Shown here: positions 6,594-45,741 of the stretch, piece by piece
Numbering within the stretch: the first letter of the stretch is position 1
Layout of the letters: each line of letters opens with the position of its first letter
NCBI GenBank assembly: GCA_963791045.1
Contig: CAWBQK010000001.1
Span: 1-64,000, forward strand
Reading direction: 5' to 3'
DNA length: 64,000 nucleotides
From: Candidatus Latescibacterota bacterium
GTDB lineage: Bacteria; Krumholzibacteriota; Krumholzibacteriia; WVZY01
The notes under the pieces: model-generated
Told to the model about the DNA's origin: nothing
What the model saw: only the letters and a program-made list of their open reading frames with translations
Database searches by the model: none
Made by a program: the position numbers and the translations under genes

Positions 6594-6645
6594 GTGGTTC
6601 TGTCAATGCGCGACACTGCCGTCGCGCGTTTGGAGATTGCCATGC

Positions 6646-6678
6646 AAAAAAAGGGGCGCCTCTCAAGGGCGCCCCTTT
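6646..6678. terminator. Intrinsic terminator
   Basis: AAAAAAAGGGGCGCC-TCTCAAG-GGCGCCCCTTT hairpin between convergent genes. Confidence 0.8.
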
Positions 6679-6692
6679 GCCAAGTTCTCCGA

Positions 6693-10559: not shown

Positions 10560-10811
10560 TGGTGGACCTCCGTGCTGTGCGAGGGCGGACAAACGCCCTC
10601 AGAAGACACAATCGCATACAATCGTGTAGAGAATAATCAGGAGAGGCTCGTGGAGTGCGAATGGCGGAAGGTGCGAGAATGGAGCACCCAGCCAGGGTGG
10701 CCGCGACTCCAAACCGCTCTCTCGTGATTTCTTTAAATCAACCCGTAGCAATCGATATTTTATCACAAAGGGGGGAGCTTTGTCAGCAGTGTTGCGTCAG
10801 GCGCTCGCGCC

Positions 10812-19666: not shown

Positions 19667-20695
19667 TTAATAGACACTCTCCCGTAGTTCAGCCGGTCTA
19701 ATCGGTTCTTCCTTTTTCACTTTCAGTCCAAGATTCTCGCGACGCCGACGCTCGAGCGTTTGCATTTTCACCAGCGCCCTCGCTGTTGTGATCTCTCGGT
19801 TACGACCATGATACATGTCGGCCGGCGTCAGGTTGTTGATCGACTCGTGGTAACGCTCATGGTTGTAATGGTGAACGAAGCGTTCGAGTTCTTGTTCGAG
19901 CTCCCATGGTGCATAGTAGTTCTGAAGCGTGACCACGTTCTTCATCGTTCGGTGGTACCGTTCGATCTTGCCCTGTGTCATCGGATGGTAAGGTCGGCCT
20001 CGCGTATGGTCGATCTCCTTTTGAGCCAGATAAGTCGCCAGTTCATTCGAGACGTAGGCCGGACCGTTGTCGCTTAAGAGCCGCGGGCGGTGACGTACTC
20101 GTGCATCCGTCACTCCTGTCTTCTCAATGGCCCGATCCAGCGTCTCCTTAACGTCTGTCGCTGCCATGCCGGCTGAAAGTGTCCAGGCGACGATGTAGCG
20201 GCTATAGTCGTCAAGGACGGTCGAGAGGTAATACCAGCCCCATCCGATCACCTTCATGTAGGTGAAGTCCGTTTGCCAGAGCTCATGCACGCGCCGCGTC
20301 TTGTGCTTGAACTCGGAGGCAGCCGAGAGCACGATATAGTTAGGACTTGCCACAAGATCATATGACTTCAAGATTCGATAAACACTGCTCTCGCTCACAA
20401 ACCATCCTTCTTTGTCCGTGATGTGCCAGGCCAACTCCCGCGGTGATGCCTCCGGCTTCTCGATCGCCAGTTCCGCAACACGCTCTCGCTCCACATCCGG
20501 GATCCGGTTCCAGAACCGTCGCCTCTGTCCTGTTCGGCTCGCCAGACCGTCATAGCCATCTCGCGCATATGCCGCGTACCAGCGATAGAATGTACTGCGT
20601 GGCACGTCGAACTCGCAGAGCGTTCGGCTCACCGGCAACGATGAGCCCTCCACCAGACGAATCACTTCCATCTTTTCCGACTGGCTGTACCTCAT
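19667..20695 (-). CDS. IS3-family transposase OrfB (DDE/rve)
   Basis: WQTDFTY, LDDYSRYI, LLSDNG and QGKIERYHRT motifs. Confidence 0.9.
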   Translation of the reverse strand: MRYSQSEKMEVIRLVEGSSLPVSRTLCEFDVPRSTFYRWYAAYARDGYDGLASRTGQRRRFWNRIPDVERERVAELAIEKPEASPRELAWHITDKEGWFVSESSVYRILKSYDLVASPNYIVLSAASEFKHKTRRVHELWQTDFTYMKVIGWGWYYLSTVLDDYSRYIVAWTLSAGMAATDVKETLDRAIEKTGVTDARVRHRPRLLSDNGPAYVSNELATYLAQKEIDHTRGRPYHPMTQGKIERYHRTMKNVVTLQNYYAPWELEQELERFVHHYNHERYHESINNLTPADMYHGRNREITTARALVKMQTLERRRRENLGLKVKKEEPIRPAELRESVY

Positions 20696-23371: not shown

Positions 23372-24568
23372 TTATTTGAGAACCGTCAGTCGTTTGACCT
23401 GAGTCTCCCCGCTTGTCGTCATACGGGTGAAATACACACCACTCGCGACGCCATCGGCATGCCAATCGAGCGTGTGCTCGCCGTACTCGACGGTCTGATT
23501 GACCAGCACTTCAATAAGACGGCCCGCCACATCATAAATGGCGAGCTGGACAAACTGATTCTCGGGCACAAAGAACGTAATCTTTGTCACCGGGTTGAAC
23601 GGGTTCGGATACGCGTCCTTCAACACCGGCTTGTCCGAGTACTCAAACGGCAGGTACTTGTTCCCCTTGATCAAAATACAGTCCTGCGCCTCGAGAGCGA
23701 CGCCGTCAAGGTAGTACCCGGTGAGCGTCAGTGTCCGCTCTCCATGGTACCCCGGGGCGATCGCCGCTGCGATGTCCTGGGAAATGAACTTCATCATGAT
23801 GTCGTCGAACCCGTCGGGACCCGCCGTCGTGCAGGCGCAGTCGGCGTCATCCACCACCGGTCCCGCGACGTCATTGATCTTCGGACCACCACCCTTCGAG
23901 AGCGGAGCCACACCCTCGAGCCGAAGTGACGAGAGATCCACGGTCGACACGTCGAATGTCGCGCTCCCAAGAAGCGCAACGGGCATCACACCGCCTTTCA
24001 TCGGCTTTTCGCCCTCGGCGAATTCGAAGAACTTGATGTTGAACGGGTTCGGGCAGGATCCAGGCTTGATATCCAAATCCATCTCGGGGCAGATGATTGA
24101 CGTTGAACCGCTCCCGTACACAATTTCGAAATCGGGAAACCGACACGCGCAAATAGTCCCGAACTCCGGGTGCGCGACCACGCTTATCGGCTGGTTTATC
24201 GTGGCACAGTCCGTACAGTTCCACAGAACGAGCACCCTCATAAACCGCACCTCAAAAAACCCATTGAGCGGCAGCGACCACCCAATCGATACTCCGCTGG
24301 ACGTGTTCCCTATCGTTACGGGGGGAACGTCAAGATCCGCCAACCAGGTCATGCTAGGCGGGTACTCAATCTTAAACTCCATCCCCGTAAAGAGAATGTT
24401 GAAATCCTCCGCAACAACATAAAGCGTATCGAGTCCCGGTCCGGGGCAGTCCATCGCGCGCATCGTCAACGCCTCGTCGAAGTACACCTTCACCATCTGG
24501 CTATTTGCCGGCGCCGCCACCAGGCACACCACGACCATGAGCGCAAATGCGCAAAAAGCAGGTCTCAT
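23372..24568 (-). CDS. Secreted protein: cohesin-like Cys-containing N-domain, DIKPGSCPNP module and FlgD/T9SS-like C-terminal domain
   Basis: Signal peptide; DIKPGSCPNPFN...CACTTAGPDGFDD; ends AYPNPFNP...ASGVYFTRM...LTVLK. Confidence 0.8.
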   Translation of the reverse strand: MRPAFCAFALMVVVCLVAAPANSQMVKVYFDEALTMRAMDCPGPGLDTLYVVAEDFNILFTGMEFKIEYPPSMTWLADLDVPPVTIGNTSSGVSIGWSLPLNGFFEVRFMRVLVLWNCTDCATINQPISVVAHPEFGTICACRFPDFEIVYGSGSTSIICPEMDLDIKPGSCPNPFNIKFFEFAEGEKPMKGGVMPVALLGSATFDVSTVDLSSLRLEGVAPLSKGGGPKINDVAGPVVDDADCACTTAGPDGFDDIMMKFISQDIAAAIAPGYHGERTLTLTGYYLDGVALEAQDCILIKGNKYLPFEYSDKPVLKDAYPNPFNPVTKITFFVPENQFVQLAIYDVAGRLIEVLVNQTVEYGEHTLDWHADGVASGVYFTRMTTSGETQVKRLTVLK

Positions 24569-24803: not shown

Positions 24804-25853
24804 TTACTTCTTACCTAACATGTAGAGCTGCCAGATATCGCGGTCGGACATGTTGAAGATCGGGGCGCAGGCCATGAGTCCGGTCTTGCCGATGCTCTTC
24901 TCCAGGTACTTGAGTTCCTTGAATTTCTCCATGATTTCAGGCTCATCGGGAGGCTTAAAACCCGCCTCCCGCATGAGAAGAATCCCCTTGGCCCTGATAG
25001 AAAGCTCGAGATGAAGCCTGAGCATGCAAAGCATATCAACCACCACCTCGCCGGCAAAACGGGACTGCAGGGACTCGAAATAGCCCCCTATCCGCGATTC
25101 CGTCACGGTTCCGGTCTGGATGATCTCGAGCAGTTCCTGATCGGTGTCAAAACGAACGCCCAGCCACCGTCGCGTGGCGCGTTCGCTCGTTCGGAACACG
25201 ATCCACACAATCTGCGGCAGGACCACGAGGATCCCGATCGTCGATAAAACCGGCGAGAAGAAAAAGTGGTTGTAGGCGGAGTGCAAAAAATACGCAACGG
25301 TAAGACCAGGCAAGAACCCCGAGAGCCGCCCCCATGTCCCCCGTCCATCGGTCGCGAGCGAATACTGGTCGCACATCTGCTTGGAGATAATTCCCATAAT
25401 CCCGGTGACGCCACCGTGCATGACGGCGGTCCCAAACCCGCGAATGATCCACACAAGCAGATTGGTCGTCTCGAGGTACCGGAAATAATAGATGTTCTCG
25501 ACAATGGCAAAACCGGCGCCGATCGCAAAACCGTAGATCGCCGCATCCACCATAAAACCGACACGCCGCCGGCAAATCAAGATGACGAGAAGACTCGCCT
25601 TCAATGATTCCTCGACAAACGGCGCCACATACCGGGCAAAGATGGTCGCGTCGGTAAACACCGCGCCTATCAACCAGCTGTTGAGCCACAGGCAGGAAAA
25701 CGCCGCGACACACCCAAAGAGAATCGCGCCGAGAACCGCGCGAAACCGCATGAGCTTAAACGAGTCGACGGCGATCAGGACGAGCAGAAACACGACCACC
25801 GGCAAAAGGCTGGCCGCGAGACTAACAATGGAATGCAGAGTAGATGAAAGCAC
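24804..25853 (-). CDS. PrsW-family intramembrane protease
   Basis: Multi-pass membrane protein with APFVEESLK (EE), GAGFAIVEN, MHG and LHSAYN motifs. Confidence 0.9.
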   Translation of the reverse strand: MLSSTLHSIVSLAASLLPVVVFLLVLIAVDSFKLMRFRAVLGAILFGCVAAFSCLWLNSWLIGAVFTDATIFARYVAPFVEESLKASLLVILICRRRVGFMVDAAIYGFAIGAGFAIVENIYYFRYLETTNLLVWIIRGFGTAVMHGGVTGIMGIISKQMCDQYSLATDGRGTWGRLSGFLPGLTVAYFLHSAYNHFFFSPVLSTIGILVVLPQIVWIVFRTSERATRRWLGVRFDTDQELLEIIQTGTVTESRIGGYFESLQSRFAGEVVVDMLCMLRLHLELSIRAKGILLMREAGFKPPDEPEIMEKFKELKYLEKSIGKTGLMACAPIFNMSDRDIWQLYMLGKK

Positions 25854-25859
25854 CGATGT

Positions 25860-28811
25860 TTAAAGCAATTTCAAGGAAATCATGAACTCGTCCCGGTACT
25901 GATAGTTCTTCTCCCACGCACCGGCGTAACCGAATGACAATGTCGATGACATAGTCGAGAATATGACGAGTTTGAAATCAATTTGCAACCCCGCGTTTAT
26001 GAGCGTCCTCCGGATCGGCTCGTTGTGCCAGTTCGTCGAAAGCGCCGTGGAGAAAAGCCTCATATGCGCCCAGTTGCAGTAAAGCGACGGAATACCAAGA
26101 TGCTCGAACCGCACCGGCGGCAGCGCAAGCTCGACCATAAACTTGCCAAACGTCGTCCCGCCAACCTCGTTGATCTCGACGCCGGGATAACTGTAATAGT
26201 CTCTGTACCGTTTGACCTCCTGATAGTCCACCCAGTTGTTCCCAAACGCACCAAAGAAGTAGTTGGCGAACGGTTCGTAATCGTCGCCGTGCGACTTGCC
26301 GAGCGCCGGGCGAAACCACACCGACATGTGGTCGACGGGCGTCAGGAAGCCCCAGTCGAGCGTTCCCCAGTACCGAGGGATGTGGTGCTTGTTGACGTAG
26401 TTGTCGACCACATTGAGGGACCACTTGATCCCCTTCTCGGCCTCGACACCGCCAATCGTCCGGCCGAGACTCTTGTAATACAGCCCGGCGCCAAAGTTCA
26501 GATACTCCTTGAACGACGCTAGAACGTTCTGATAATCGGGCAGCGTTTCGAGGTCGCCGTACCAGGCGCCAAACAATTTGTAGTCAAGACTCTTCGGCCG
26601 CTCGCTCTTGAGCACGCCACTGTAACTCCCCCCGACGCCGTACCCTTTGCGCGCGTACTTGGTCGGACCAAAGAAATCATAAAAGTCCGCCGGGTTGAGC
26701 GCGCCCGAAAACTCCCACGGGTAGTGGCTGTATTTGAGCTTGATATGCGCCTGCTCGCTGTCCTCGATCATCCCGTTGGACGGTGTGTAGGCCGCCGTCA
26801 CATCGATTCCGTGCATCCACATCGGATCCATAAAGCTCGCGCGCACGCCCCAGGCCACATGCCCTTTGTAGTCTTCAACAATCGGATACCACCAACCCAG
26901 CCGCACACTTTTGAGCGAGGAATAATCCGTCCCCACCAGGGCCGTCGAATCAATCTTCACGGCGGACGGCGGTGGGAGCATCCAGTTCTCGAGCATCGGG
27001 TACTTGTCGAACACTGCCTGACCGAGGAAGCGCACCGCGCTCACGTCTTCGATCGGCTGGTTGGCGAGCATGACCGGCCGGAACCCTTCCGACGTATACC
27101 GAAGCGCTATCAGCGAATCCTCCGAAACGGGAACCGGACGGAAATACCCGTTCTCGTCATTCGTGATCCACTCCATTTTCTTGTTTTCGAAATCATACCG
27201 CGTGACATTGGACACACCGGTCGCATACGTCGTCCCGAACAGGTATTTGCCATCGGGCGAGTGCACGTAGTTCGCCGGAGAATAGTTCGAGAACTCGTGA
27301 AGAACCTCGAATGTCGTCTCTCCCACCATCATCTCGGCGATGCTGAGCTTGATGAGCCGCTGATGACCGTTCACTTCGAGAAGGGTACCCGTCAGCGACT
27401 CCCCATCGGGAGACACATCGATATCAAAGAGATCGCGCCCGAACGGCAGCGTCAGGAGAATAAACGCGTCCTGGTCGTAGGGGGGCGGAATCATCACCAC
27501 GCTGGAAAGCCCGTTGTGATGCCGGATTCCCCACAACGACCGGTCGACCCGGTTGATCGCGAGGTCACCGGTTCGGATGTCTTTCATCAGTTTTGTCGCC
27601 TTGTTCGACACCACGCTCACCGAATTAAGATCGCGCCAGTGATGACTGTTGTCCGTCGTGTAAAACAGTGTCTTTGAAGAATCGTCAAAGGCGAGCGACG
27701 CCACGTAGTAGAGCGCCGGTGTTGGAATGTCCACCACCTTGCGGCTCTCCCACGTATCGATATCGACAGCGACAATATGGGCCATCTCTCCCGGGTACAG
27801 CACGGCGCTGTAGAGCTCCCGGGTCTCCGGATCGAAATACATTCTCGACGCCGACCCCAGCGCGCCCCGCGACAGTTCGCGGTACGGCGTCACCGGGTAC
27901 TGCCGGACCGAATCGAGCGCGGCGGCCTGCCACTCGTGCTCGAACTCGACCCACCTGGCCCACTCATCGTCGAGAGGCGTCCCGTAAACCTTCTTAAACT
28001 GGGTGCCAAAGTGACGTTTGGACCCGTCGTTGCGGTTGACCCACTGGATCATCTTTTCGGGCCCGTACATATAGACGAGATACGAGACGAACCGCGTGCC
28101 GTACAGGTACGACATCTGGCCGACCTGCCAATCGATGGCCGATCCCTCGGACTCGAGCCCGACGATGTCGTAGAAAAATCCGTCCTCGGCGACCTTGGCC
28201 CGGAATACCATCTCGTCGTACCCACCCAACACACGTCCGTACCCGCCGGCCATCCACGTTTCCATGAAGACGGCCATCCCCTCGTGATACCACCGGGGCG
28301 CATACATTCTCGGCGATGTGAGATAACTGTACATCGCGGAGAGCGGCGCCTCCGGCTCGGTCATCACCTTGCCGGAAAAGAACCCCCGCCAGAACCTGTC
28401 GCGCGATGACGCCTGGTCCGACGCCACCACGTGCAGAAGCTCGTGGCTCATTACCCAGTTGAGGCGTTCGTTTGTCGGGGATGTTTCATACACCTGCTCG
28501 TAGGGCTCGATCCCGATGAGCAGGTAGTTGACGGGGAGCGAGGTGGCGCCGGCGTAACCATGATCGTTGAGATCCCGAAGGATTACGGTCACTTTTTCGC
28601 TCGGTTCCCAGTCAAACATTTCGATGTGAAAGGTAATCGAGTTTTCGAAACACCGCACGAGATGTGGAATCACATATTCGTGTTCCTCATCGTAATAGAT
28701 GAGGCGCATGTGATCGGTTTCGATTTGTTTGAATTTGAGCTGGGAATGGGCGGAGAGCGGAACCACCAGTACTAGAATGACAGCAATAAAGGCAAATATG
28801 TTCTTTTTCAT
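25860..28811 (-). CDS. Outer-membrane protein: gluzincin/MA-like HExxH domain, TolB-like propeller and C-terminal beta-barrel
   Basis: Signal peptide starting MKKNIF; SHELLH followed by WYHEGMAVFME; DVSPDG/HSPDG blades; amphipathic aromatic-rich strands at the C-terminus. Confidence 0.75.
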   Translation of the reverse strand: MKKNIFAFIAVILVLVVPLSAHSQLKFKQIETDHMRLIYYDEEHEYVIPHLVRCFENSITFHIEMFDWEPSEKVTVILRDLNDHGYAGATSLPVNYLLIGIEPYEQVYETSPTNERLNWVMSHELLHVVASDQASSRDRFWRGFFSGKVMTEPEAPLSAMYSYLTSPRMYAPRWYHEGMAVFMETWMAGGYGRVLGGYDEMVFRAKVAEDGFFYDIVGLESEGSAIDWQVGQMSYLYGTRFVSYLVYMYGPEKMIQWVNRNDGSKRHFGTQFKKVYGTPLDDEWARWVEFEHEWQAAALDSVRQYPVTPYRELSRGALGSASRMYFDPETRELYSAVLYPGEMAHIVAVDIDTWESRKVVDIPTPALYYVASLAFDDSSKTLFYTTDNSHHWRDLNSVSVVSNKATKLMKDIRTGDLAINRVDRSLWGIRHHNGLSSVVMIPPPYDQDAFILLTLPFGRDLFDIDVSPDGESLTGTLLEVNGHQRLIKLSIAEMMVGETTFEVLHEFSNYSPANYVHSPDGKYLFGTTYATGVSNVTRYDFENKKMEWITNDENGYFRPVPVSEDSLIALRYTSEGFRPVMLANQPIEDVSAVRFLGQAVFDKYPMLENWMLPPPSAVKIDSTALVGTDYSSLKSVRLGWWYPIVEDYKGHVAWGVRASFMDPMWMHGIDVTAAYTPSNGMIEDSEQAHIKLKYSHYPWEFSGALNPADFYDFFGPTKYARKGYGVGGSYSGVLKSERPKSLDYKLFGAWYGDLETLPDYQNVLASFKEYLNFGAGLYYKSLGRTIGGVEAEKGIKWSLNVVDNYVNKHHIPRYWGTLDWGFLTPVDHMSVWFRPALGKSHGDDYEPFANYFFGAFGNNWVDYQEVKRYRDYYSYPGVEINEVGGTTFGKFMVELALPPVRFEHLGIPSLYCNWAHMRLFSTALSTNWHNEPIRRTLINAGLQIDFKLVIFSTMSSTLSFGYAGAWEKNYQYRDEFMISLKLL

Positions 28812-28831
28812 GCTCTTTTGTGGGAAGGGGT

Positions 28832-28868
28832 AAAGGGGAAGCCGCGGAATAACCGCGGCATCCCCTTT
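28832..28868 (-). terminator. Strong intergenic hairpin after the repeat-protein gene
   Basis: AAAGGGGA-A-GCCGCGG-AATAA-CCGCGGC-A-TCCCCTTT. Confidence 0.65.
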
Positions 28869-28895
28869 TACGTCGCGCTGCACCTGCGCTGACTG

Positions 28896-30935
28896 CTACT
28901 GGGCGATCTTTACGCGCTGGAAAATCTCCGCGCGTTCGGTCGGCGTGAGGCGCTCGAAGAATTCGGCGCGCTGACTCACACTCATCGCCTGGAATCTCTC
29001 GGCGGACATATCATGACGCTGGTAGAACGCCGTGCGTTCGGCCGGCGTCAACCGCTCTACGAGATTGGAGCGCTCGACCACATTCATCCGCGCGTACGAT
29101 GACTCGTACACGTTCGCCTTCTGGAAGAACTCGGCGCGTTCGGAGAATGTCATACGCTCGAAGATCGAAAGCTTGCCCGCAAGGCTCATCGCCTCAAAGC
29201 GGCCGGCGGTAAAATTGAGTCTCTCAAAGAACTCGGCACGCTCAGCCGGGGTCAAACGGTTGTAAATGTTCGCACGCTCGGCGATGTCCATCTTGTTGTA
29301 GACGGACTGCGCCACGTTGAGGCGGTTGTGTATTTTCATCCGTTCGTACGGCGTAAGCTTTTCATAGATGTTCGCACGCGCTTTCATGTCCATCTTCGCA
29401 TACCGCTCGGAGGTGATGCTCTGACGGAGGAAGATGTCGGCACGCTCGGCCGGGGTCAGGCGCTCGAAAATATCAGCGCGCTCTGCCACGCTCATCTTGC
29501 CGATCCTCTCGCTCGTGAAGCTGATCCGCTGGGCAATCGAATACCGCTCGGCCGGGGTCAGACGCTCTACGAACTTGGCGCGTTCGGCGATATTGAGACC
29601 CTTGTAGCGCTCGGCGGTCATTTCGTAGCGCTGGAAGAACTCCATCCGCTCGGTCGGTGTGAGACGCTCGAACATCTCAACGCGCTGAGCCATATCCATC
29701 CGACCCGAGGCGGCCGAGAAGATATTGATCTTGTTGAAGATCTCCTGGCGCTGGGCCGGGGTGAGGCGCTCGACGAAGGCCGCCCGCTCGGCGACATTCA
29801 TGGTCGAGAACTTCGAACTCGTCATATTGAAGCGCTGGAAGAACTCGGCGCGCTCTGCCGGGGTCAAACGTTCAAAGATCTCGGCACGCTGCGCCTGGTT
29901 GAAATTCGCATACCGCTCCTGCGAGAAAGCGATACGATTGAAGATTTCCTGGCGCTCGGAGAACGTGAGGCGCTCGAAGAAGAGAGCGCGTTCGGCGATG
30001 TCCATCCGCTCGGCGGCGGCGCTGAAAACGTTGATCTTGTTGAAGATCTCCTGGCGCTGGGCCGGGGTCATACGCTCGGCAAAGCTCGCACGTTCGGCCA
30101 TGCTCATCGCGGAGAACTTCTCGCTTGTCATATTGAAGCGCTGGAAGATCTCGGCACGCTGGGCCGGGGTCAGACGCTCGAACATTTCGGCGCGGCCCGC
30201 CGCGTCCAACTTCGCATACCGCTCAGCCGAGAAGTTGAATTTCGAGAAGAAATTCGAACGTTCGGCCGGGGTCAGACGATTGAAGAACTCAGCACGGCCC
30301 GCCGCGTCCATTTTGTCAAAACGCGCGCTCGTGAAGTTGATCCGGCTGAACATCTCCTGCCGCTGCGCGGGGGTCAAACGCTCGACAAACTCGGCGCGCT
30401 GCGCGACACTCATCGCGGAGAACTTCTCGCTCGTCATGTTGAAGCGCTGAAAAAACTCTGCGCGCTCGGCCGGGGTCAGACGCTCAAAAATCTCAGCACG
30501 CTGCGCCTGGTTGAAGTTCGCGTAGCGTTCAGCCGTGAAGCTAAACTTCTCGAAGATCGCCTGGCGTTCCGCCGGAGTCATGCGCTCCACGAAGCTTGCA
30601 CGCTCGGCGATGGACATCTTGCCCCAGACGGCCTCGTACGGATTCATCCGCTGAAACATGTTGGTCCTCTGTACCGGGGTCAGACGCCCGAAGAGACCCG
30701 CCAGTTCCTCATCCGACATCCAGTCCGCCGTCTCAACAGCAGACTCGCCCGCCTTTTGGCCTTTGAGGTGAACATCCTCGGAGCTGAGCTGGTCCGCTCT
30801 GTACCTGTCGGCAGTACCGATGGCGCCCTCGAGTCCGTCTTCCTTCGGCGGTGTGGCGAAGAATGAGAAATAAGCGATCGCGACGATGGCGACGACCGCG
30901 AAAACACCGAGAAGACTTCTGTTTCGTCCACTCAT
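28896..30935 (-). CDS. Membrane-anchored protein of 17 full and 1 partial 34-aa helical repeats (ERLTPAER...)
   Basis: 82-aa leader with a TM helix, then gap-free 34-aa periodicity (82 + 17x34 + 19 = 679 aa). Confidence 0.9.
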   Translation of the reverse strand: MSGRNRSLLGVFAVVAIVAIAYFSFFATPPKEDGLEGAIGTADRYRADQLSSEDVHLKGQKAGESAVETADWMSDEELAGLFGRLTPVQRTNMFQRMNPYEAVWGKMSIAERASFVERMTPAERQAIFEKFSFTAERYANFNQAQRAEIFERLTPAERAEFFQRFNMTSEKFSAMSVAQRAEFVERLTPAQRQEMFSRINFTSARFDKMDAAGRAEFFNRLTPAERSNFFSKFNFSAERYAKLDAAGRAEMFERLTPAQRAEIFQRFNMTSEKFSAMSMAERASFAERMTPAQRQEIFNKINVFSAAAERMDIAERALFFERLTFSERQEIFNRIAFSQERYANFNQAQRAEIFERLTPAERAEFFQRFNMTSSKFSTMNVAERAAFVERLTPAQRQEIFNKINIFSAASGRMDMAQRVEMFERLTPTERMEFFQRYEMTAERYKGLNIAERAKFVERLTPAERYSIAQRISFTSERIGKMSVAERADIFERLTPAERADIFLRQSITSERYAKMDMKARANIYEKLTPYERMKIHNRLNVAQSVYNKMDIAERANIYNRLTPAERAEFFERLNFTAGRFEAMSLAGKLSIFERMTFSERAEFFQKANVYESSYARMNVVERSNLVERLTPAERTAFYQRHDMSAERFQAMSVSQRAEFFERLTPTERAEIFQRVKIAQ

Positions 30936-31000
30936 TTTCGACCCCCCTTTGGGTTTGGTGTGGGAAATAGCCTAAGCTTTGGTGAAACCGCTTCTAATAA

Positions 31001-31030
31001 AATTACCGGCCAACTCATGGAAAGTTGGTG
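31001..31030 (-). promoter_or_regulatory. Putative ECF sigma promoter upstream of the repeat-protein gene
   Basis: Minus strand CACCAACTTT-N13-GGTAATT; same motif and spacing as at 32392-32421. Confidence 0.65.
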
Positions 31031-31049
31031 GAAATGTCCACCTGGTTCC

Positions 31050-31835
31050 CTAGGGTTGTTCCGGCAAAATTTCGCGATCGAGAAGGACCTGGCCTCCCGA
31101 TATGACCTTGACCAGAAATGGGGCCGCAGGGTCTTCGTCGAGCTCGAACATGAACTCGTACGTGCCCTCGCCCTTGTTCCGGACTCGGATCTCGCGGTCT
31201 CCGATTGTGACCTGATTCGATGGATGTTCTGACAGTTTGCCTCCGGAAAAGCCCAACGCCTGCCCACCATATCCGAGGATGATTTCGACCTCATCTTCTG
31301 ACTGGATATCGAGATGCGTGAGCAAACGCGTCTTGACGCGTTGCAGAGACATGGCGCCGGTGGCTCCCGGCACACTGATGTTCAAAACGGGATTGGATTG
31401 ATCAACGCTGCTAAAATCGATTGTGCCACGTAACTGTGAAATGTCAAGGGGATCGTTGACGCCGGCTTCGTAAGCCAATAAATGATATCCAATTATGCCA
31501 ACAAACATCCCCATGACCGCCGCTGCGGCCACTTTCAATACGGGCCGCGGCGCGAAGAAATCGCGAATACGGTCCCATGCGGCGATCCGACCCGCCGGCT
31601 GAGGCGCCGGTGGTGTCGCCGCTTCGAGTGAGCGAAGAATGCGCTGTCTAAGCTCTGGAGGCGGGTCGATCTCTCCCACCTGACCGAAGAGCATCGTCAT
31701 CTGACGAAGCTGCTCAAAGTGCTTGAGCGCCTCGTCGTGCGATTCCAGATAGGAGTTTAGTTCCCTTCGATCATTGGGAGAGATCGAGTCGTCTATCTCG
31801 AGCCACATGAGTTCTTCTATTCTTCGTTCGATCAT
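31050..31835 (-). CDS. Single-pass anti-sigma factor
   Basis: N-terminal anti-sigma-like domain (EIDDSIS...YLESH...PPPELRQRIL), one TM helix, directly downstream of the ECF gene. Confidence 0.8.
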   Translation of the reverse strand: MIERRIEELMWLEIDDSISPNDRRELNSYLESHDEALKHFEQLRQMTMLFGQVGEIDPPPELRQRILRSLEAATPPAPQPAGRIAAWDRIRDFFAPRPVLKVAAAAVMGMFVGIIGYHLLAYEAGVNDPLDISQLRGTIDFSSVDQSNPVLNISVPGATGAMSLQRVKTRLLTHLDIQSEDEVEIILGYGGQALGFSGGKLSEHPSNQVTIGDREIRVRNKGEGTYEFMFELDEDPAAPFLVKVISGGQVLLDREILPEQP

Positions 31836-31849
31836 GGCACGATCCTTTG

Positions 31850-32371
31850 TTAACCCACGATGCCTTTACTCTGGAGAATTTCCTTGAGCTGTTGTCTCGC
31901 AGTAAAAAGACGTGATTTGACCGTTTTCTCGGGAACGTTAAGGACTTCCGCGATCTCCTTGTACGAGAAACCCTGGTAGTGCCTCAATGCGACAACGATC
32001 CGGTAATCCGGTTTAAGCATCTTGAGAGCCGCCTGCAGATGCCGTCCCAGCTCACGATCGCGGAACTTCTCCTCGGGGCTCTTCCCCGGAGCCGGAATAT
32101 TGCTGTCGAGCTCGTCAAACCGTTTCCGGTAGTTGACGATATTGAGGGACTCGTTGATGAGGATCCGGTACATCCAGGGGAAAAAGCGGCAGGAGGTATC
32201 GAAGGTGTGAAGCTTTTCATATGCCTTTCACAAAAGCGGACTGGGTGGCATCCATTGCATCTTCGGAGTCACCCAGTACTCTGTACGCGGCGTTAAAAAG
32301 CTTTTTTTCGTACCTTTCCACCAACACTTCGAATGCCTTCCGTTCCCCGCAAGGCAGGCTTGAACAATCAT
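31850..32371 (-). CDS. ECF RNA polymerase sigma factor (SigW-like), frameshifted near 32345 and 32225
   Basis: Reconstructed AFEVLVERYEKKLFNAAYRVLGDSEDAMDATQSAFVKAY...FFPWMYRILIN...GFSYKEIAEVLNVPEKTVKSRLFTAR. Start position is approximate. Confidence 0.85.
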
Positions 32372-32391
32372 CTCATCACGGTCAGTTGCCT

Positions 32392-32421
32392 AAATACCGT
32401 GGATGAGTCGAAAAGTTGGTG
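32392..32421 (-). promoter_or_regulatory. Putative autoregulatory ECF promoter
   Basis: Minus strand CACCAACTTT-N13-GGTATTT immediately upstream of the sigma gene. Confidence 0.65.
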
Positions 32422-32543
32422 AGTATTTTCGAAGAAGTTTGCCGTTTTGTGGGTCCCACGCCTGACCCCCGGAGACAGCCCGAAAGGTTCGCCCCGGCCA
32501 GTCGGCCGGAGGGTGTCGCGGTCGATTTAGAAATGGGTTATGT

Positions 32544-32829
32544 CTATTCGATTTCGAAGATATGGTCAAATCCTGCCATCCGGAAAATCTCCCGTATATG
32601 CCGGTTCATATTCATGAGTTTGAGACTGCTGCCCGTCTCACCAAGCCGTTTCTGGACGTCCAAGCAGCACCCCGAGCCCGGCGCTCGAAATGTATTCCAG
32701 ATCGGCAAAATCGACACGCAGGACTGCCGACACCTTGTTCATGGCCTCACGCGCGACATCGTACCTGCGATGCATCGAGCCTGCCGACCAGTTCGAATCC
32801 GGTCCTCGTGTTTCTCGCACCTCGAACAT
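32544..32829 (-). CDS. STAS-domain anti-sigma antagonist, frameshifted
   Basis: LVGRLDA, VDFADLEYISSAGLGVLL and IREIFRMAGFDHIFEIE* spread over different frames. Confidence 0.8.
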
Positions 32830-32830
32830 G

Positions 32831-33239
32831 TTATCGCCCCAGCTCCTTCATGATCGTGACTTGCATATGCCGGTCCTTGTACTCGTAGGTGATTTTGTCC
32901 ACGATCGACTTGACGAGATGTAATCCAAGCCCCCCGACCTTCCGTTCCTCGATCGGCTGGTCCGTCGTCCACATCGGGAATCCGCGATGGATCAAAAGGG
33001 TCGACATCCTCATCCACCAACTTGATGACGTAGCTGGCCGTCACTCGGGATCCATCTGGATCCCGATGGGATGTCCGGCCCCAGTGTTATGCCGGACCAT
33101 ATTGGTAAACAGTTCTTCCATGGCAAGGTTGATCGAATACGCCAGCGATTCATCGATCTTGCTGGTCCGTCAAGAATTGACCGATATATTCGAAAATCCC
33201 ATCAAGAGATTTGAAATCTCGTTGGAATGTTTTTTCCAT
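32831..33239 (-). CDS. RsbW-like HATPase anti-sigma kinase, frameshifted
   Basis: INLAMEELFTNMVRH, DVDPFDP and ERKVGGLGLHLVKSIVD spread over different frames. Confidence 0.8.
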
Positions 33240-33379
33240 TTCCACTGCACCACCTTGGAGCCATCATATACGCAGACCTGGACGCCGCAAGTGTCAATTA
33301 CACGCCATCCTCGCGGATAACCCGCAGCCCAGTCACTGGACGGGCTAAAAGCCCGGGAAAAGAACGGAAACCACGAGGG

Positions 33380-35197
33380 CTATTCTCTTGTATCGGAGTC
33401 TGAAGATTCGGTACTGAGAGGAACAAGGACATCACGGGGGAGCTGCACCGGTTGCTCGGATGTCCGGGAGATCAACACACAATTGACTGCCTCGAAGGAA
33501 GTTCCTGATTTCACCGATCCTGACAGCGTCCAATTCCGGCGTTCATTTTCCAGAACGGTCGATGGATCGGCCAACACATCGGAAAGTCTGAACTGGAGGA
33601 CGAGGTCCTGAAAACCGTCACCGCCCTCGTTCGAACAATCACAATCCCCGCCTGTACCCGGCCGGCTCACATCGCGGTACTGCACCCTCGTCGGGGCGGC
33701 ATCTTCAAGGTAAAGCGACGTCACATCGATGTCGCTGACATCGAAGTCTTCCCCGCCGACAACGGCAACCGTCACCAGGTCCTGAATACCCAATTCGACG
33801 GCGTTCGGACACACACCGGGGGCGATGTCAAAAAACACATCGAGCGTCACATCGACCCATTCGTGTATCACGACGTTCGAACCCGCCGTGGCGCCGTCAT
33901 CATGATCGTCACCAATCACCGCAATGAGAAGGTCGCGCCCCGCGTTATTGCCGCGGTACAAAAACACGGCGTGGCCGGTCGAGTCGGTTCGAGCCTTCGA
34001 CACGACGCCGGAGTGCGGCCCCGATACGATCTTGAGAGCCACATCGACGTCGACTACGGGGACGCCATGATCCTGGACGACGGCCTTGATTTCACACGGC
34101 GAACCGACCTGGGTCTGCCCCGCCGATGCCGACAAAACGAACCCGTCTGGAGCAAGACCGTCGGCCACCGGCGCGGCTGCCACCACACCACGAGCACCGC
34201 GGCCGCCAATGAACGAGGCAAAGAACAGATTTTCCTCGTTGGATTGTGTCGCTGTATTTATTGAAATCCTGGAATCGCCCGGCGAAACGAACGGCCGCAG
34301 GTCATAATACTCATCATCGCTCGCCATGTTTGTGGGCACCGCGTACGCATCGACCGGATTTGCCGGAGAATCGTCGATGCCGCCGATACTTAGCAATCCG
34401 CCTGACGCGGGCGATCCGTCGTCGGGCCCTCCGGCGGACGTCGTCAAACGCTCACCGTTGACCTGGATGATCGTGTACTGATCGGTCCCACCGCTCGACT
34501 GCAGGCTGAAAGTGATTCCAACCCCGAGTTCATAACGCATCGATGCCAGATCCGCGGGAACCGGGCTGGAAAGATTGATTTTGAAGCTATCTTGCCTCGC
34601 CGACTGGGCGCCAAAATAGAGCGCCACATCGTTGTCCGGATAGGCGTCGGGGTCATCGAAAACCACGGCCAGAATAACCCCGTCGATGAGGTCGCTCTGG
34701 TCCTCCCACACATCGACGGGCACGCGCCCGGCGGGCGCGGCGTCGATCTCGCCCTTGATGAGCCGTGTCACGTCGGCCACGGCATTCCATGATCCGACGG
34801 CATTTGGAACCGTACGATCCCAGGCGACATGGTGACCGTCGATACGTATCTCACCGTCCGTGATTTGATGGGAAAAATTACCCGACGCGGCCGCCGCCAA
34901 AAAAACCTTGCGTACTACGCCGCGGGCCGGCTTGTCGACCTCAATGGTGCCAAACGACAGTTCGGTGCCTATGCCGTTTACCGACACGCTCAAAGGGCCT
35001 GTCGCGGCAAAGATCGTCTCCAGGCTCTGGGAAAAACGAACGGTCTGGTTCGACCGATCGGATGCGCCGGGTGGTTTTGTCGGCTGGGTGCGCTTCTTCG
35101 GTTTATATTTTACGCCGTTAGCAGGGGTTACAAACGCGGCGCAAACGAGGACCAGAACAAGGGAGCGCACCACGCAACGAAAGAGGGTTCGTATCAT
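33380..35197 (-). CDS. Secreted multidomain protein with an Ig-like (Big-1-like) domain and a C-terminal DIAPGVCPN module
   Basis: GAGGAG RBS and signal peptide; VSGPHSG...TDSTGHAVFLY; FDIAPGVCPN...CDCSNEGGDGFQD. Confidence 0.75.
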   Translation of the reverse strand: MIRTLFRCVVRSLVLVLVCAAFVTPANGVKYKPKKRTQPTKPPGASDRSNQTVRFSQSLETIFAATGPLSVSVNGIGTELSFGTIEVDKPARGVVRKVFLAAAASGNFSHQITDGEIRIDGHHVAWDRTVPNAVGSWNAVADVTRLIKGEIDAAPAGRVPVDVWEDQSDLIDGVILAVVFDDPDAYPDNDVALYFGAQSARQDSFKINLSSPVPADLASMRYELGVGITFSLQSSGGTDQYTIIQVNGERLTTSAGGPDDGSPASGGLLSIGGIDDSPANPVDAYAVPTNMASDDEYYDLRPFVSPGDSRISINTATQSNEENLFFASFIGGRGARGVVAAAPVADGLAPDGFVLSASAGQTQVGSPCEIKAVVQDHGVPVVDVDVALKIVSGPHSGVVSKARTDSTGHAVFLYRGNNAGRDLLIAVIGDDHDDGATAGSNVVIHEWVDVTLDVFFDIAPGVCPNAVELGIQDLVTVAVVGGEDFDVSDIDVTSLYLEDAAPTRVQYRDVSRPGTGGDCDCSNEGGDGFQDLVLQFRLSDVLADPSTVLENERRNWTLSGSVKSGTSFEAVNCVLISRTSEQPVQLPRDVLVPLSTESSDSDTRE

Positions 35198-35320
35198 GGT
35201 TCTCCTCAAGGGGCAATTGCCTTTCTTTAAGTAAATTATAATGTTACAGCGCTTGTAAGTCAAATTCAAACCCCGGAGGCCGGTCGTGGGTGGGTGGGAT
35301 CGGCTCCCAACAAAAAGCAC

Positions 35321-35361
35321 AAAGCCCCTCCGGTCAATCAAGGCCGGAGGGGCTCTTTTTC
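35321..35361. terminator. Intrinsic terminator
   Basis: AAAGCCCCTCCGGTC...GGCCGGAGGGGCTCTTTTT hairpin. Confidence 0.7.
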
Positions 35362-36983: not shown

Positions 36984-37931
36984 CTACCTGACTAGGGTGT
37001 GACAGCCGCTCTGATAACAATCCAGCCCGTACTTCGCGGGAAGATCCGGATCGAGATAGAAGTTACTGTTGAACGATCCATGCGTATCAACGTGACAGTA
37101 TTCGCATGAGACGTTCGCGTATGCGCCGCCGTGCGCTGTATTGTGCTTTGCGGGGTAATGACACTGGGTACAAATTTTGTTTCCGGGCTGCCTGAGGAGC
37201 CGGTCTTGCTCGCTGCCGTGCGGTTTGTGACAGTCGAGGCAGCCGGTGCCGCTCTGAGCGGAGTAGGCGTTTACCGCCTGGTGTTCGTAAAGGAACGGGC
37301 CTCCCTGCTCGGGGTGACAGTCGCGGCAGTGCTGCTGCAGATCGTACATGACCGCCTGGTCATCGCGTTTGACGAAGCTGTGGCAGTCCAGGCACGTCAA
37401 TGCTTTCTGCAGAACTGGATGATTCGAACGCCTGCGAAACTGATCGCGGGTTGACGCGTGGCACTTGAAACAGAACTCCATGTCACGATCGAGAAGGAGC
37501 TTTGCATCGTTTGTGTGCACTTTGTGGCACGACATACAGCTCAGTTCGGCGCTCGAGTGTGCGTCATAACCGTAATTGTCGAGATCGCTGTGACCCTCGT
37601 GGCACTGTGTACAAATATCTATCGCGCTCTTGCCCGTATAATCCGCCGGGTTGGTAATGGTCTCCTTCGAGGGATCGTCCAGGTGCCCCGCGGCGCCCTG
37701 GTGGCAAATCGCGCACGCCACGACCGTTCCCGGGTCCTTGATCTCGGAACTCAGGCGATGGGCCGTCGCCTTGAGCGAGAGGTTGTAATCTTCGTGACAG
37801 TCGAGACAGGTCTCGTCATCAACGTCCACATCCTTTGTCAGGGTCGCAGACGGAAATGCAAAAACAATGATGACGAGCAACGCGAAGCCCAATCCCAACA
37901 GCCACCGGCTGTTTGATGTCCGCATTCTCAC
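36984..37931 (-). CDS. DmsE/MtrA-family decaheme c-type cytochrome
   Basis: Ten CxxCH motifs plus a terminal CYQSGCH; GPFLYEH and CHKPHGS motifs. Confidence 0.9.
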   Translation of the reverse strand: MRMRTSNSRWLLGLGFALLVIIVFAFPSATLTKDVDVDDETCLDCHEDYNLSLKATAHRLSSEIKDPGTVVACAICHQGAAGHLDDPSKETITNPADYTGKSAIDICTQCHEGHSDLDNYGYDAHSSAELSCMSCHKVHTNDAKLLLDRDMEFCFKCHASTRDQFRRRSNHPVLQKALTCLDCHSFVKRDDQAVMYDLQQHCRDCHPEQGGPFLYEHQAVNAYSAQSGTGCLDCHKPHGSEQDRLLRQPGNKICTQCHYPAKHNTAHGGAYANVSCEYCHVDTHGSFNSNFYLDPDLPAKYGLDCYQSGCHTLVR

Positions 37932-40843: not shown

Positions 40844-43023
40844 TCACGGTTGATAACCAAATGTCACAAAAAAGCTTCTTCCGGGCAGCGGAAAACCGTT
40901 TACGTCGCTGATCTGGTTGTCTGGTCAGATTGCGCCCTTCGAAAGCCAGCATGACGCCGTTGCCAAGGGGGCGCCATTGGACCGCGGCGTTATGAATCTC
41001 CCGGGCGGGCACCGCCGAATGGTTGGCCGGATCGAGGTAGTTTTCGCCGATGTGATTGAAGTTCGTATGAAAGCTTCCACTTCTCCAACAACACGTCGAA
41101 GGAAAACCCAAGCGTATGCCGGGGCCGCGATGGAAGCTGGTTCCCGTTGTGGTACGGGATCGGCCCCACGTCCTTGCTATCGAGATACGAGTAGTTCCCT
41201 CCGACCCTCAGCCGGTTGCCCACCTGTGACGGCAAAAGAAAATTCCATCCCCCGGATCCGCGCCGCGCCGATATTTTGCGGCCGGGTCGTGAACTGCGAA
41301 TTGGGGAAGAACAAGAATGAGATTGCTCACTTCGTTGTCGAGATAAACCAACTCAACAAATATGTTTCTGAATTTCCAAAAACCGCCGGCATCCGAAATC
41401 ACCGCGCCAATATCCCGATTCAGACCTTCTTCGGGTTCCAGATCGGCGCTTCCCGTAACCGAACCGGTGTTGCCGAACAGTTCGACAAAGGTTGGCAGCG
41501 CGGTAGTAACGCCCCCAGTTGCCTTTGAAGGTGAGAAACGAAGCGGCAAGCCACCGGAATCCGGCGCGCGGCGAGACGTTGTTCCGGGTGACCTCACCCT
41601 GCGGCGTGGGCGGCAGCCACGGAAATCGGGGCGCGATCGTAAAATTCATTGGTGTGCGTCTGGTACCGGCCGGCGGCCGTCAAAACCAGACCAATCCGCT
41701 CGAGAACGACATCGCCCGACACCACACCGGCATAAGAGGTGCGCAGGCGATCGGGTCCGGACGACTGCGACGGGGAGAACGGACTCGGGATGATACTTTT
41801 CGTTTTTTCCCTCGGCGAACAGCTCCAGCCTCAGCGGCAGAGCCGGTGTGTCGAATGTCGACCGCCCCTGCAAACCAGCCGTCCGAAAATCATTGTCGGT
41901 CTCCTGCCGGGTCATGGAGATTTCGCCGTTCGGGTCATTGAACTTCTCGTTCGCCCCGATAAAGAAACCCTGCGCGGCGAATGTCAGGCGGTCGGTGAAT
42001 ACCTCGCCCGGGTCGACCCGGAGGTAAGCCATGTGGCGTTTTCTCGCGCTACGCGCCGTCGTTGCCTGGTGCGAGCCGATTCCCGGAACTCCGCCCTCGC
42101 GCTGGAAATAATTGTAGTTGAGCGATACGTCTCTGAGTACGGGCACCGTGGCGTTCAAACGGCCCATGACATTCCACGCGTCGGAATCATTGTTGATCCG
42201 TTCGGTGGCGTTGTCGTCTCCCGGATTCTCCGGAGTGCCGCCGTCATCGACAAACGTAAAATTGCCGTCGCTCTTAAAATGTCCGCCGTGGGCGAACACC
42301 TTCACGGCGCCCTTCCCCGACCACAACGACAACACCTGGCGTGCCGTGTTGAACGAGCCGTGTGACAACCGCGCTTCCGCCTGGGTCCCCGGCGCTGCGC
42401 TCACGCCGCTCCCCGCGCCGCCCCGCGAGGTCAAGTTGACCGCGCCCCCTATCGCCGACGACCCCAGATGCGGTGGCGTAAAACCGCGATAGACCTCGAT
42501 CGCATTGACGCCGCCCAGCGGCAGATCACCGAGATTCGACATTCCCCCGTAAGCGTCGTTCAACGGAATCCCATCGAGGAAAACATCGACCTGGTTCGAC
42601 GACGATCCCCGGATCGAGACCGTCGCAAAACTTCCCAGACCTCCGTACTGGCGAACGCGAACACCGACGGTCCGTTCGAGCACCGTCGACAAATCGTCGA
42701 CGCGGTGACGCCGCTCGCCCAGATCAAGAACGGCGACAAAACCCGACCGTTTAAAAACGTCATATTGATTTCTTGAAACGCGTGGCGCTTCTACGATAAT
42801 CGCCGGAACCGAAAAGAGACTGTCGAGAACCGTGCCACTGGCGTCGTCCGTCGCCTCGCCGTCCACCGCGTTCGCCGTCGGCAGCGCAAAACACATGAGC
42901 ATCAACATGACCACAAAAAGACGCAACGCGCCCCGGATCACAGCGATGTCAAACGGCGGCCGCCTACGAGCGCACGCCGATCGCACGGGAAATATCAAGA
43001 AAGATTCAGAAGGTATCACTCAT
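40844..43023 (-). CDS. TonB-dependent receptor, probable cobalamin importer (BtuB-like), with multiple frameshifts
   Basis: Plug-domain motifs [27 protein letters not shown] and AIGGAVN; later [11 protein letters not shown]...LEPEEG. Preceded by a B12 riboswitch. Confidence 0.85.
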
Positions 43024-45725: not shown

Positions 45726-45741
45726 GAATCTCAGTAGTCAA

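Follow-up and report, generated by a model that had tools for sequence, protein, structure and literature searches.

The window analysed here, a 64,000-nucleotide stretch (positions 1–64,000 of contig CAWBQK010000001.1) from a Candidatus Latescibacterota bacterium, encodes on its minus strand a 679-aa repeat protein, P0001. Its gene lies in a cassette that also specifies an extracytoplasmic function (ECF) sigma factor, an RsiW-like anti-sigma factor, a metallopeptidase with a predicted outer-membrane barrel and a PrsW-family intramembrane protease. We give about an even chance to the reading that the repeat array of P0001 acts as a periplasmic sensor, shield or sacrificial substrate in a proteolysis switch of the sigmaW/RsiW/PrsW type, in which the cleavages, their order, the signal and the topology are all deduced; the analysis itself shows the build of the protein, the conserved gene order, the fusions, the duplicated promoter-like element, the motifs of the proteases and the barrel. 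A sensor had been among the roles suggested for the protein in a preliminary description made from the DNA alone, and it fits a gene context of ECF sigma factor, anti-sigma factor and two proteases.

The leader and its anti-sigma fusions

P0001 begins with MSGRNRS, so that R4 and R6 precede a 20-residue hydrophobic run (residues 8–27) and the transmembrane (TM) segment starts after only seven residues. PPKEDGLE follows the anchor, and then GAIGTADRYRADQL at residues 37–50. Run exhaustively against 1.84 billion representative proteins, phmmer (E ≤ 1e-3) returned 120 matches to P0001, a single one of them at E ≤ 1e-30, and most cover just residues 3–60. Word-index protein searches (whole P0001; residues 1–82; length range 373–1189 aa) gave no match; with 120 relatives recovered by phmmer, this has no bearing on novelty. 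The leader motif, as defined by our search pattern, is present in 78 of these 120 remote matches. Across 85 unique sequences the consensus consists of a TM helix, PPP, an acidic pair and G[AT]IG[AT]Ax[RK]YR[AS]EQIxxxDVxL, the motif sitting about 10 residues past the anchor; residues 8–27 and 37–57 of P0001 fit this layout. G37, G40, Y45 and Q49 are invariant in 25 sequences and D54 and V55 nearly so, and positions left free by the search pattern are conserved as well (I+2 in 77 of 85 sequences, R/K+7 in 84, D+17 in 84 and V+18 in 80). No Pfam or NCBIfam model covers the leader.

Using one genome per species and a leader pattern taken from an eight-sequence alignment, we collected 20 loci (L001–L020). 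They come from Latescibacterota, Krumholzibacteriia, Holophagae, Thermoanaerobaculia, Vicinamibacterales and other Acidobacteriota, as well as from Gemmatimonadetes, Eisenbacteria, Zixiibacteriota, a metagenome-assembled genome (MAG) labelled Chondromyces and unclassified MAGs. At two of them (L016 and L017), an anti-sigma N-terminal domain, the TM helix, the leader and the repeats are encoded in one frame, and there is no separate anti-sigma gene. The same arrangement recurs among the library proteins: the leader lies more than 100 residues from the N-terminus in 13 of the 78 that bear it, and ten of these 13 match the NCBIfam anti-sigma model (E 1.4e-7 to 7e-4, all under its cut-off), with no match to this model in P0036, P0087 and P0116. 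The first 82 residues of one relative, P0019, are 37% identical to the anti-sigma factor of the window (E 2e-16). In these fusions, leader and repeats come to lie across the membrane from the domain that binds sigma, on the outer side, and the family is tied functionally to anti-sigma control. An N-in/C-out topology with extracytoplasmic repeats is accordingly the best reading for P0001, judged from the charges flanking the TM segment and from the fused relatives, which both agree with the location given in the preliminary description. P0001 itself matches no anti-sigma family in Pfam or NCBIfam and is not itself a class I (RsiW-type) anti-sigma factor; that domain resides in the product of the neighbouring gene at 31050–31835.

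The repeat array and its predicted fold

Translation and register confirm the overall plan described earlier, a TM anchor and leader followed by gap-free 34-aa repeats, and residue counts confirm a composition rich in F, M, R, E and A (A 13.4, R 12.7, E 11.7, F 10.4 and M 5.2% in the repeat region) with no Cys anywhere in the protein. The register begins at residue 83 and runs for 17.56 repeats, matching the 17.5 first counted. Self-identity is 0.425 at an offset of 34 residues, 0.459 at 68 and 0.535 at 102, compared with a mean of 0.08 and a maximum of 0.125 when the residues were shuffled 2000 times. The layout of 12+10+12 residues proposed for each repeat is likewise supported, because identity at offsets 12 and 22 (0.185 and 0.183) exceeds that of the shuffles (maximum 0.118). 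As to the super-period of three repeats, identities of 76–85% among repeats 3, 6 and 9, 62–74% among 4, 7 and 10 and 50–71% among 2, 5 and 8 agree with Tandem Repeats Finder, which reports a 306-bp period (2.7 copies, positions 29725–30539), and five consecutive 102-aa blocks align gap-free. Between the 306-bp blocks, the proportion of synonymous differences (pS) is 0.51–0.70, with synonymous sites near saturation, and the ratio of non-synonymous to synonymous change (dN/dS) is 0.12–0.31. Low dN/dS at saturated synonymous sites indicates that the repeat copies are old and under purifying selection, and the blocks are neither a recent duplication nor an assembly artefact. Two open frames on the opposite strand, 29328–30866 (+, 512 aa) and 29725–30450 (+, 241 aa), are taken as shadow open reading frames (ORFs) of a repetitive coding strand rich in G+C at third codon positions (GC3 0.78), not as genes.

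The repeats had been called unrecognised, and this does not hold, given that two Pfam profiles match P0001 above their cut-offs: MgtE_N (PF03448) with 111.7 bits over six stretches (cut-off 25.9) and DUF3106 (PF11304) with 53.9 bits (cut-off 24.3). The earlier remark that the 12-mers recall the short helices of MgtE_N was thus right. When the 102-aa blocks are scanned one at a time against MgtE_N, each of the first three passes the cut-off (30.7, 30.8 and 30.0 bits) and enters the profile at position 2–3, and the last two fall slightly under it (24.1 and 21.7 bits); a single 34-aa repeat scanned alone gives no MgtE_N match. The super-period equals the length of the MgtE_N model (102 positions), and in the simplest reading the array would comprise about five to six tandem MgtE_N-length units, each of three 34-aa sub-repeats. 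A one-to-one mapping of blocks to MgtE_N should not be pressed, because the profile is itself roughly periodic and block 4 aligns to it 12 positions out of register.

AlphaFold2, run with an eight-row alignment, returns an all-helical model with three short helices per repeat of about 10, 5 and 9 residues, and Foldseek matches this model to designed repeats, HEAT/ARM proteins, PP2A PR65 and importin-alpha. Of the alpha-solenoid proposed from the DNA, the helix pattern and the general class are therefore borne out, but not a confident three-dimensional model (mean pLDDT 51.1), and the structural matches are generic. The profile matches and the helix pattern, rather than such a model, make a well-supported case for the repeats being an alpha-solenoid of the MgtE_N type. 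A sequence search of solved structures finds MgtE only, at E 0.95 with the protein and E 0.78 with a profile of the 102-aa blocks, and a structure-atlas comparison (ESM Atlas) of the homologue P0003 gave nothing usable. As noted in the preliminary description, there is no tetratricopeptide repeat (TPR) consensus: no TPR family is among the Pfam matches of P0001 at E ≤ 0.1, Pfam gives high scores to the genuine TPR proteins encoded elsewhere in the window, and a TPR assignment was rejected.

The likeness to MgtE_N and the ARM-like motifs of FliG thus consists of a profile match above cut-off and of short helices of about 10 residues. In the transporter, MgtE_N is a single cytoplasmic domain, a right-handed superhelix of about ten short helices, preceding the CBS domains and the channel, whereas in P0001, the product of a sigma-factor cassette, about five to six units are strung together beyond a membrane anchor. 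Single solved MgtE structures match P0001 only marginally. An MgtE transporter was rejected, given that Pfam and NCBIfam detect no CBS or channel family in P0001 and that the repeats lie beyond an N-in anchor. DUF3106, a family of no known function, also matches above cut-off in L006 (76.4 bits). DUF3106 genes may adjoin ECF sigma factor genes in Burkholderiales; a full-text literature search on the family name returned two papers only, both unrelated.

Comparison with the homologues shows that the leader is kept, whereas the period and type of the repeats are not shared and differ even between orthologues, two points missed in the preliminary description. A 34-aa period like that of the window occurs in L001, L002, L005 and L012, and a 12-aa period in L003, L004, L006, L007, L008, L010, L011, L013 and L014 (for example, ERFKPEERFAIF, DRATAAEKAxVL and SRLDPKAREDIF), with nearly identical 12-mers in L014 (identity 0.69 at offset 12). 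Periods of 9 or 18 aa are found in L015, L016, L018 and L019, of 67 aa in L009 and of 74 aa in L020, and the library relatives add periods of 11, 45, 66–69, 77 and 123 aa, together with some aperiodic tails. The 12- and 34-aa tails have a 12-mer theme in common ([ED][RK], a hydrophobic residue, a cap, P/A, any residue, [ED][RK], any two, two hydrophobics), and both types match MgtE_N, most strongly in L014 (242 bits, with an additional FliG_M match); the MgtE_N scan found no match in L015 and L019, of the 9-mer type, or in L020. The leader thus defines the family, and the tail is free to evolve as long as it keeps to repeats of short helices. L001 and L002, two contigs of the same MAG, both encode the leader and 34-aa repeats with different sequences, and this MAG therefore holds two cassettes or two strains. 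The contigs of L001, L003, L004 and L012 end within the repeat gene, and the repeats appear to break short-read assemblies.

These properties bear on two other roles for the array. It might be a passive periplasmic spacer, ruler or tether, a rigid rod that places the barrel peptidase or reports the distance between the membranes and is not itself degraded. An inner-membrane anchor followed by about 600 aa of helical repeats and a partner peptidase with an outer-membrane barrel would suit such a role. There is also precedent for a structural role, given that the FlgY/FlbB/MotE proteins of the flagellar E-ring are described as having an N-terminal anchor or signal, a long helix and one C-terminal MgtE_N head in the periplasm (PMC13023049). 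They show that this type of fold works in the periplasm. We nevertheless regard a passive spacer as quite unlikely: the complete tail-bearing genes (L005, L006, L007, L008, L014, L015, L019 and L020) encode 320 to 628 aa and the library relatives are shorter, whereas a ruler should keep its length; the types of repeat differ among relatives; and the rod-like shape itself rests on a low-confidence model. P0001 resembles the E-ring proteins in having an N-terminal anchor and then a periplasmic MgtE_N-type helical domain. They have one head and are encoded in flagellar loci, whereas P0001 has about 600 aa of repeats, the G[AT]IG..RYR..Q leader and sigma factor and protease genes as neighbours. 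An E-ring protein was rejected on its five to six or so units and on the seven cassette genes, which encode regulators and proteases and nothing flagellar.

The other role is that of a multi-copy precursor, in which the leader would direct processing and the peptidases would cut the repeats into amphipathic signal or antimicrobial peptides of 12 to 34 aa. The classic layout of a precursor pairs a conserved leader with repeats that are hypervariable, as seen here. The gene always has those of two proteases beside it, some relatives such as L014 have 12-mers of nearly identical sequence, and each repeat of P0001 has an almost invariant R2 followed by L/M3 that could be a cut site. Such processing is nonetheless very unlikely in our view, given that the 'leader' contains a membrane anchor, joined in some relatives by an entire anti-sigma domain, that no modification or export genes occur among the seven identified cassette genes, that the repeats match a profile of a folded domain and that the copies in the window protein, now about 42% identical, have been under purifying selection as they diverged.

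The sigma factor and protease cassette

In the sampled loci, the genes follow the order RsbW-like kinase, STAS protein, ECF sigma factor, RsiW-like anti-sigma factor, leader-repeat protein, HExxH peptidase and PrsW, and the order in the window is identical, on the minus strand (Table 1). Conservation was scored by tblastn with the window neighbours and the upstream genes of L007 as queries, counting only loci with DNA at the position concerned. The kinase and STAS genes were each found in 16/16 such loci, the sigma factor gene in 17/17, the peptidase gene in 16/16 (41–73% identity) and prsW in 13/13. A separate anti-sigma gene was detected at 13 loci by tblastn and, by reading of ORFs, in L011, L015 and L019 as well. 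Every missing cassette neighbour coincides with a contig end. P0001 was found where the leader-defined family sits, between the anti-sigma gene and the genes for the HExxH peptidase and PrsW; the adjacent proteases of the preliminary description are thus confirmed, with the peptidase gene directly downstream and prsW after it. The Shine-Dalgarno-like AAAGGGGG 5′ of the P0001 ATG is kept in 8/8 aligned relatives.

Table 1. Features of the cassette in the window
Feature	Position	Strand	Basis
P0001, 679-aa leader-plus-repeat protein	28896..30935	-	Open frame, translation, Shine-Dalgarno-like AAAGGGGG
N-terminal TM anchor of P0001, residues 8–27	30855..30914	-	Hydrophobic run; helix modelled at residues 5–25; same segment after the anti-sigma domain in fused relatives
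Juxtamembrane leader motif, residues 37–57 (GAIGTADRYRADQLSSEDVHL)	30765..30827	-	Conservation in relatives
17 full 34-aa repeats + 19 aa, residues 83–679	28899..30689	-	Register, MgtE_N and DUF3106 profiles, helix model
1007-aa HExxH metallopeptidase: signal peptide, MA-type domain, propeller-like middle, Omp85-type barrel (25863–26966)	25860..28883	-	Motifs, model
PrsW-family intramembrane protease with C-terminal extension of ~130 aa	24804..25853	-	Pfam PrsW-protease, 77 bits (cut-off 23.5)
Anti-sigma factor: RsiW-like N-domain, one TM, beta-rich C-domain	31050..31835	-	NCBIfam and RsiW profile match
ECF sigma factor gene, two frame changes	31850..32386	-	Region 4 alone in open frame; 32223–32348 in other frame
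STAS (RsbV-like) gene, frame-broken	32547..32829	-	tblastn with L006 and L007 orthologues, frames -2/-3
RsbW-like HATPase kinase gene, stops and frame changes	32834..33253	-	tblastn; motifs
Promoter-like CAACTT-N14-GGTAATT before repeat gene	31001..31027	-	Window scan, aligned spacers
Promoter-like CAACTT-N14-GGTATTT directly before sigma gene	32392..32418	-	Window scan, relatives

The anti-sigma factor matches the NCBIfam anti-sigma model at E 7.2e-10, under its cut-off, and a profile built from 10 anti-sigma orthologues matches the RsiW chain 5wuq_C (E 5.2e-8). The separate anti-sigma factors keep a motif, LDxSxxxG[TSA][MI], about 15 residues past the TM helix (residues ~125–140), with a nearly invariant G137. 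It faintly recalls the G[AT]IG with which the leader motif opens, and a shared protease-recognition feature is possible, judging from three to four residues. The intact sigma factor of L007 matches structures of sigma-H, RpoE, SigE and SigW (E 1e-21 to 1e-25). The kinase label comes from sequence motifs as read, not from a family scan.

Both cassette proteases look active, judging from their invariant motifs. PrsW keeps E81, E82, H146, H191 and N195 in 11 orthologues, and these EE, H and HxxxN residues are presumably catalytic; a profile of the protein found no match among solved structures. Its C-terminal extension (residues ~220–349) lies beyond the Pfam match (38–217) and has many positions invariant in 11 orthologues, although no family was found for it. 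In the peptidase, H147, E148, H151 and E201 are invariant in 11 orthologues. Its start is signal-peptide-like, Peptidase_MA_2 matches weakly and below its cut-off (22.5 bits), and the middle part gives weak propeller matches only. The C-terminal 368 aa are modelled as an all-beta barrel of the 16-strand type (pLDDT 80.8, pTM 0.75), for which Foldseek lists 90 matches at E ≤ 1e-3, the best being BamA, TamA and FhaC (probability 1.00, E from 4.7e-6, TMq 0.40–0.52). The enzyme is thus predicted to be a metallopeptidase built on an Omp85-type outer-membrane barrel. A literature search for a fusion of Omp85 and a metallopeptidase found nothing, and we know of no described protease that joins a propeller-like middle to an Omp85-type barrel.

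Two promoter-like elements divide the cassette. CAACTT-N14-GGTAWTT occurs twice in the 64-kb window, against 0.01 expected, and at the same two places in relatives. The copy before the repeat gene lies within the 114-nt spacer separating it from the anti-sigma gene; in the aligned spacers, CAACTT is present in 8/8 and the exact GGTAATT in 6/8. Directly before the sigma gene, CAACTTTT-N13-GTATTT is kept in the closest relatives. We take AAC, about 16 nt and GT to be the form of an ECF promoter, and we infer two putative units run by the sigma factor of the cassette itself, one of sigma and anti-sigma factor and one of repeat protein, peptidase and PrsW. In L006 and L007 the sigma ATG comes immediately after the downstream half-element, an arrangement that points to a transcript with a very short leader or none.

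This division also suits a different role, that of an effector of the regulon: an envelope-protective or chaperone-like factor, made together with the two proteases once the sigma factor is active, by a logic like that of the periplasmic helical proteins Spy/CpxP, without control over the sigma factor. The repeat gene has its own sigma-type element, apart from the sigma/anti-sigma unit, the window encodes a complete separate anti-sigma factor, and several repeats of P0001 contain LTPAQ strings that resemble LTxxQ, the motif of Spy/CpxP. This is a resemblance only; P0001 has no LTXXQ or CpxP-type Pfam family at E ≤ 0.1, and a Spy/CpxP assignment was rejected. TM helix, leader and repeats are, moreover, the sole extracytoplasmic part of the anti-sigma protein in the fused relatives, and a strict juxtamembrane leader would be unexpected if the tail were the working part of a chaperone. 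An effector role of this kind is therefore unlikely.

The kinase, STAS and sigma genes of the window are all interrupted within 31853–33260, with a compensating pair of frame changes in the sigma gene and the ATG of the relatives lost, and the flanking stretches 33380–35341 and 24804–31835 are intact. The breaks may reflect either local sequencing error or real decay. In the latter case, the cassette, including the repeat gene, could be a decaying relic that is out of use in this organism, in line with the several frame breaks and stops in genes whose orthologues are intact in most relatives. Decay of the whole cassette seems most improbable to us, given that about 7 kb with the anti-sigma, repeat, peptidase and PrsW genes is uninterrupted, that the repeats are under purifying selection and that indel errors are plausible, related loci from nanopore-type MAGs (L010 and L017) being similarly broken.

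Several other genes lie around the cassette. Just upstream, a 653-aa secreted protein (33380–35341, minus strand) has no family match and is also found upstream in L007, at ~53–54% identity; a multihaem cytochrome c gene (36984–37931, minus strand) lies further upstream, and a gene for an rve-family integrase/transposase with helix-turn-helix domains (19667–20695, minus strand) about 4 kb downstream. At 41646–43019 (minus strand), a 457-aa ORF has only the plug domain of a TonB-dependent receptor; the receptor may have been truncated or frame-broken, as would be expected if indels are scattered over the contig. At 4107–13438, 23372–24568 and 45731–50542, several large secreted proteins have C-terminal sorting domains for type IX secretion, and there is also a gingipain-family (Peptidase_C25) protein of 1603 aa. 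Both features are consistent with an FCB-group diderm host.

A putative proteolysis switch and related systems

If the array serves as a sensor or shield, perturbation of the envelope would lead the Omp85-anchored peptidase to attack it from the outer-membrane side, and the conserved juxtamembrane leader would then be handled at the inner membrane by PrsW (site 1). Loss of the array would directly destabilize the anti-sigma domain in the fused relatives; in split systems such as that of the window, the separate RsiW-like anti-sigma factor would be exposed or freed for cleavage. The released sigma factor would transcribe its own gene and, from the second element, the unit of repeat protein, peptidase and PrsW, so resetting or amplifying the switch. 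In Bacillus subtilis, PrsW is the site-1 protease of RsiW and RasP acts next (PMC10202637).

A predicted complex of PrsW with leader residues 1–90 scored 0.42 (runs 0.42, 0.11 and 0.43), against 0.00 for the best of three controls, and offers weak support for their pairing. The runs had at least 54% contact agreement and a partner pLDDT of at least 60. The mark set for such scores is reached by 58 of 80 solved complexes and two of 110 mismatched pairs, and passing scores of 0.60 or less belong to seven of the 80 solved complexes and to both passing mismatches; these benchmark counts hold only roughly here, since alignments of our own were used.

A number of points weigh against a sensor or shield. 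The model of the repeat array is weak (mean pLDDT 51.1, pTM 0.27, no residue at 70 or above), and with it Foldseek finds generic alpha-solenoids only (TMq ~0.3 or less). The score for PrsW and the leader is itself weak, an enzyme–substrate pair being a poor case for complex prediction, and the proteolytic steps are all read from the gene neighbourhood. The anti-sigma factor of the window is separate, with its own TM helix and C-terminal domain, so that P0001 would act on the sigma factor by an indirect, unspecified route. Frame breaks affect all three of the kinase, STAS and sigma genes; if they are real, the switch would be dead in this organism, though the four downstream genes are intact. 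The composition, charge and period of the tail are not conserved, and because they vary, a specific ligand-binding surface is disfavoured. The peptidase, finally, could be displayed on the cell surface in the manner of a type Vd passenger rather than face the periplasm; type Vd passengers are surface-displayed.

A bolder form of the proposal, which we hold to be improbable, is a trans-envelope proteolytic fuse, in which the leader would dock to PrsW and a fast-evolving rod of helical repeats, its period and length particular to each lineage, would span the periplasm to the barrel-built metallopeptidase, so that the state or geometry of the envelope would be read by digestion of the rod down to the leader.

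Regulated proteolysis as a means of controlling ECF sigma factors is a known logic; the architecture seen here is unusual. It shares with the sigmaW-RsiW-PrsW-RasP system of B. subtilis an ECF sigma factor, an anti-sigma factor that matches RsiW and a PrsW protease, and in the fused relatives the repeats take the place of the extracytoplasmic domain of RsiW. It differs from it in that the repeat protein of the window is a separate polypeptide without an anti-sigma domain, that an Omp85-anchored HExxH peptidase and a kinase/STAS pair are added and that the hosts are diderms of the FCB group and Acidobacteriota. RseB with RseA and CpxP with CpxA are extracytoplasmic co-regulators whose removal or degradation gates envelope-stress signalling. 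P0001 would work like these, as a further protein outside the cytoplasm whose gene adjoins that of the sensor or anti-sigma factor, but Pfam and NCBIfam detect no sequence or family relation to them, and P0001 is membrane-anchored and repetitive. In its mode of action, P0001 would come closest to the outer domain of an RsiW-type anti-sigma factor, or to a co-regulator of one. In the open-access papers searched, we found neither the leader family nor the cassette nor the barrel-anchored peptidase described; the search did not extend to the supplements of the ECF classification paper PMC7826278, which list conserved neighbours of ECF groups and may be relevant, and the main text of that paper, in the passages searched, has no mention of PrsW, MgtE or STAS.

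The extracytoplasmic signal is known for few systems of anti-sigma proteolysis, well known as their logic is, and the present cassette, with an RsiW-like anti-sigma factor, PrsW, a barrel-fused peptidase and an anchored repeat protein, is widespread in poorly studied phyla. The contrast between a strict leader and changing repeats offers a testable split, in which the leader would be recognized and the repeats consumed or merely bulky. MgtE_N-type repeats would gain a second periplasmic role besides that in the flagellar E-ring. A proteolytic fuse, if true, would represent a new type of input to ECF sigma factors, and MgtE_N-type repeats and Omp85 barrels alike would be put to a new use.

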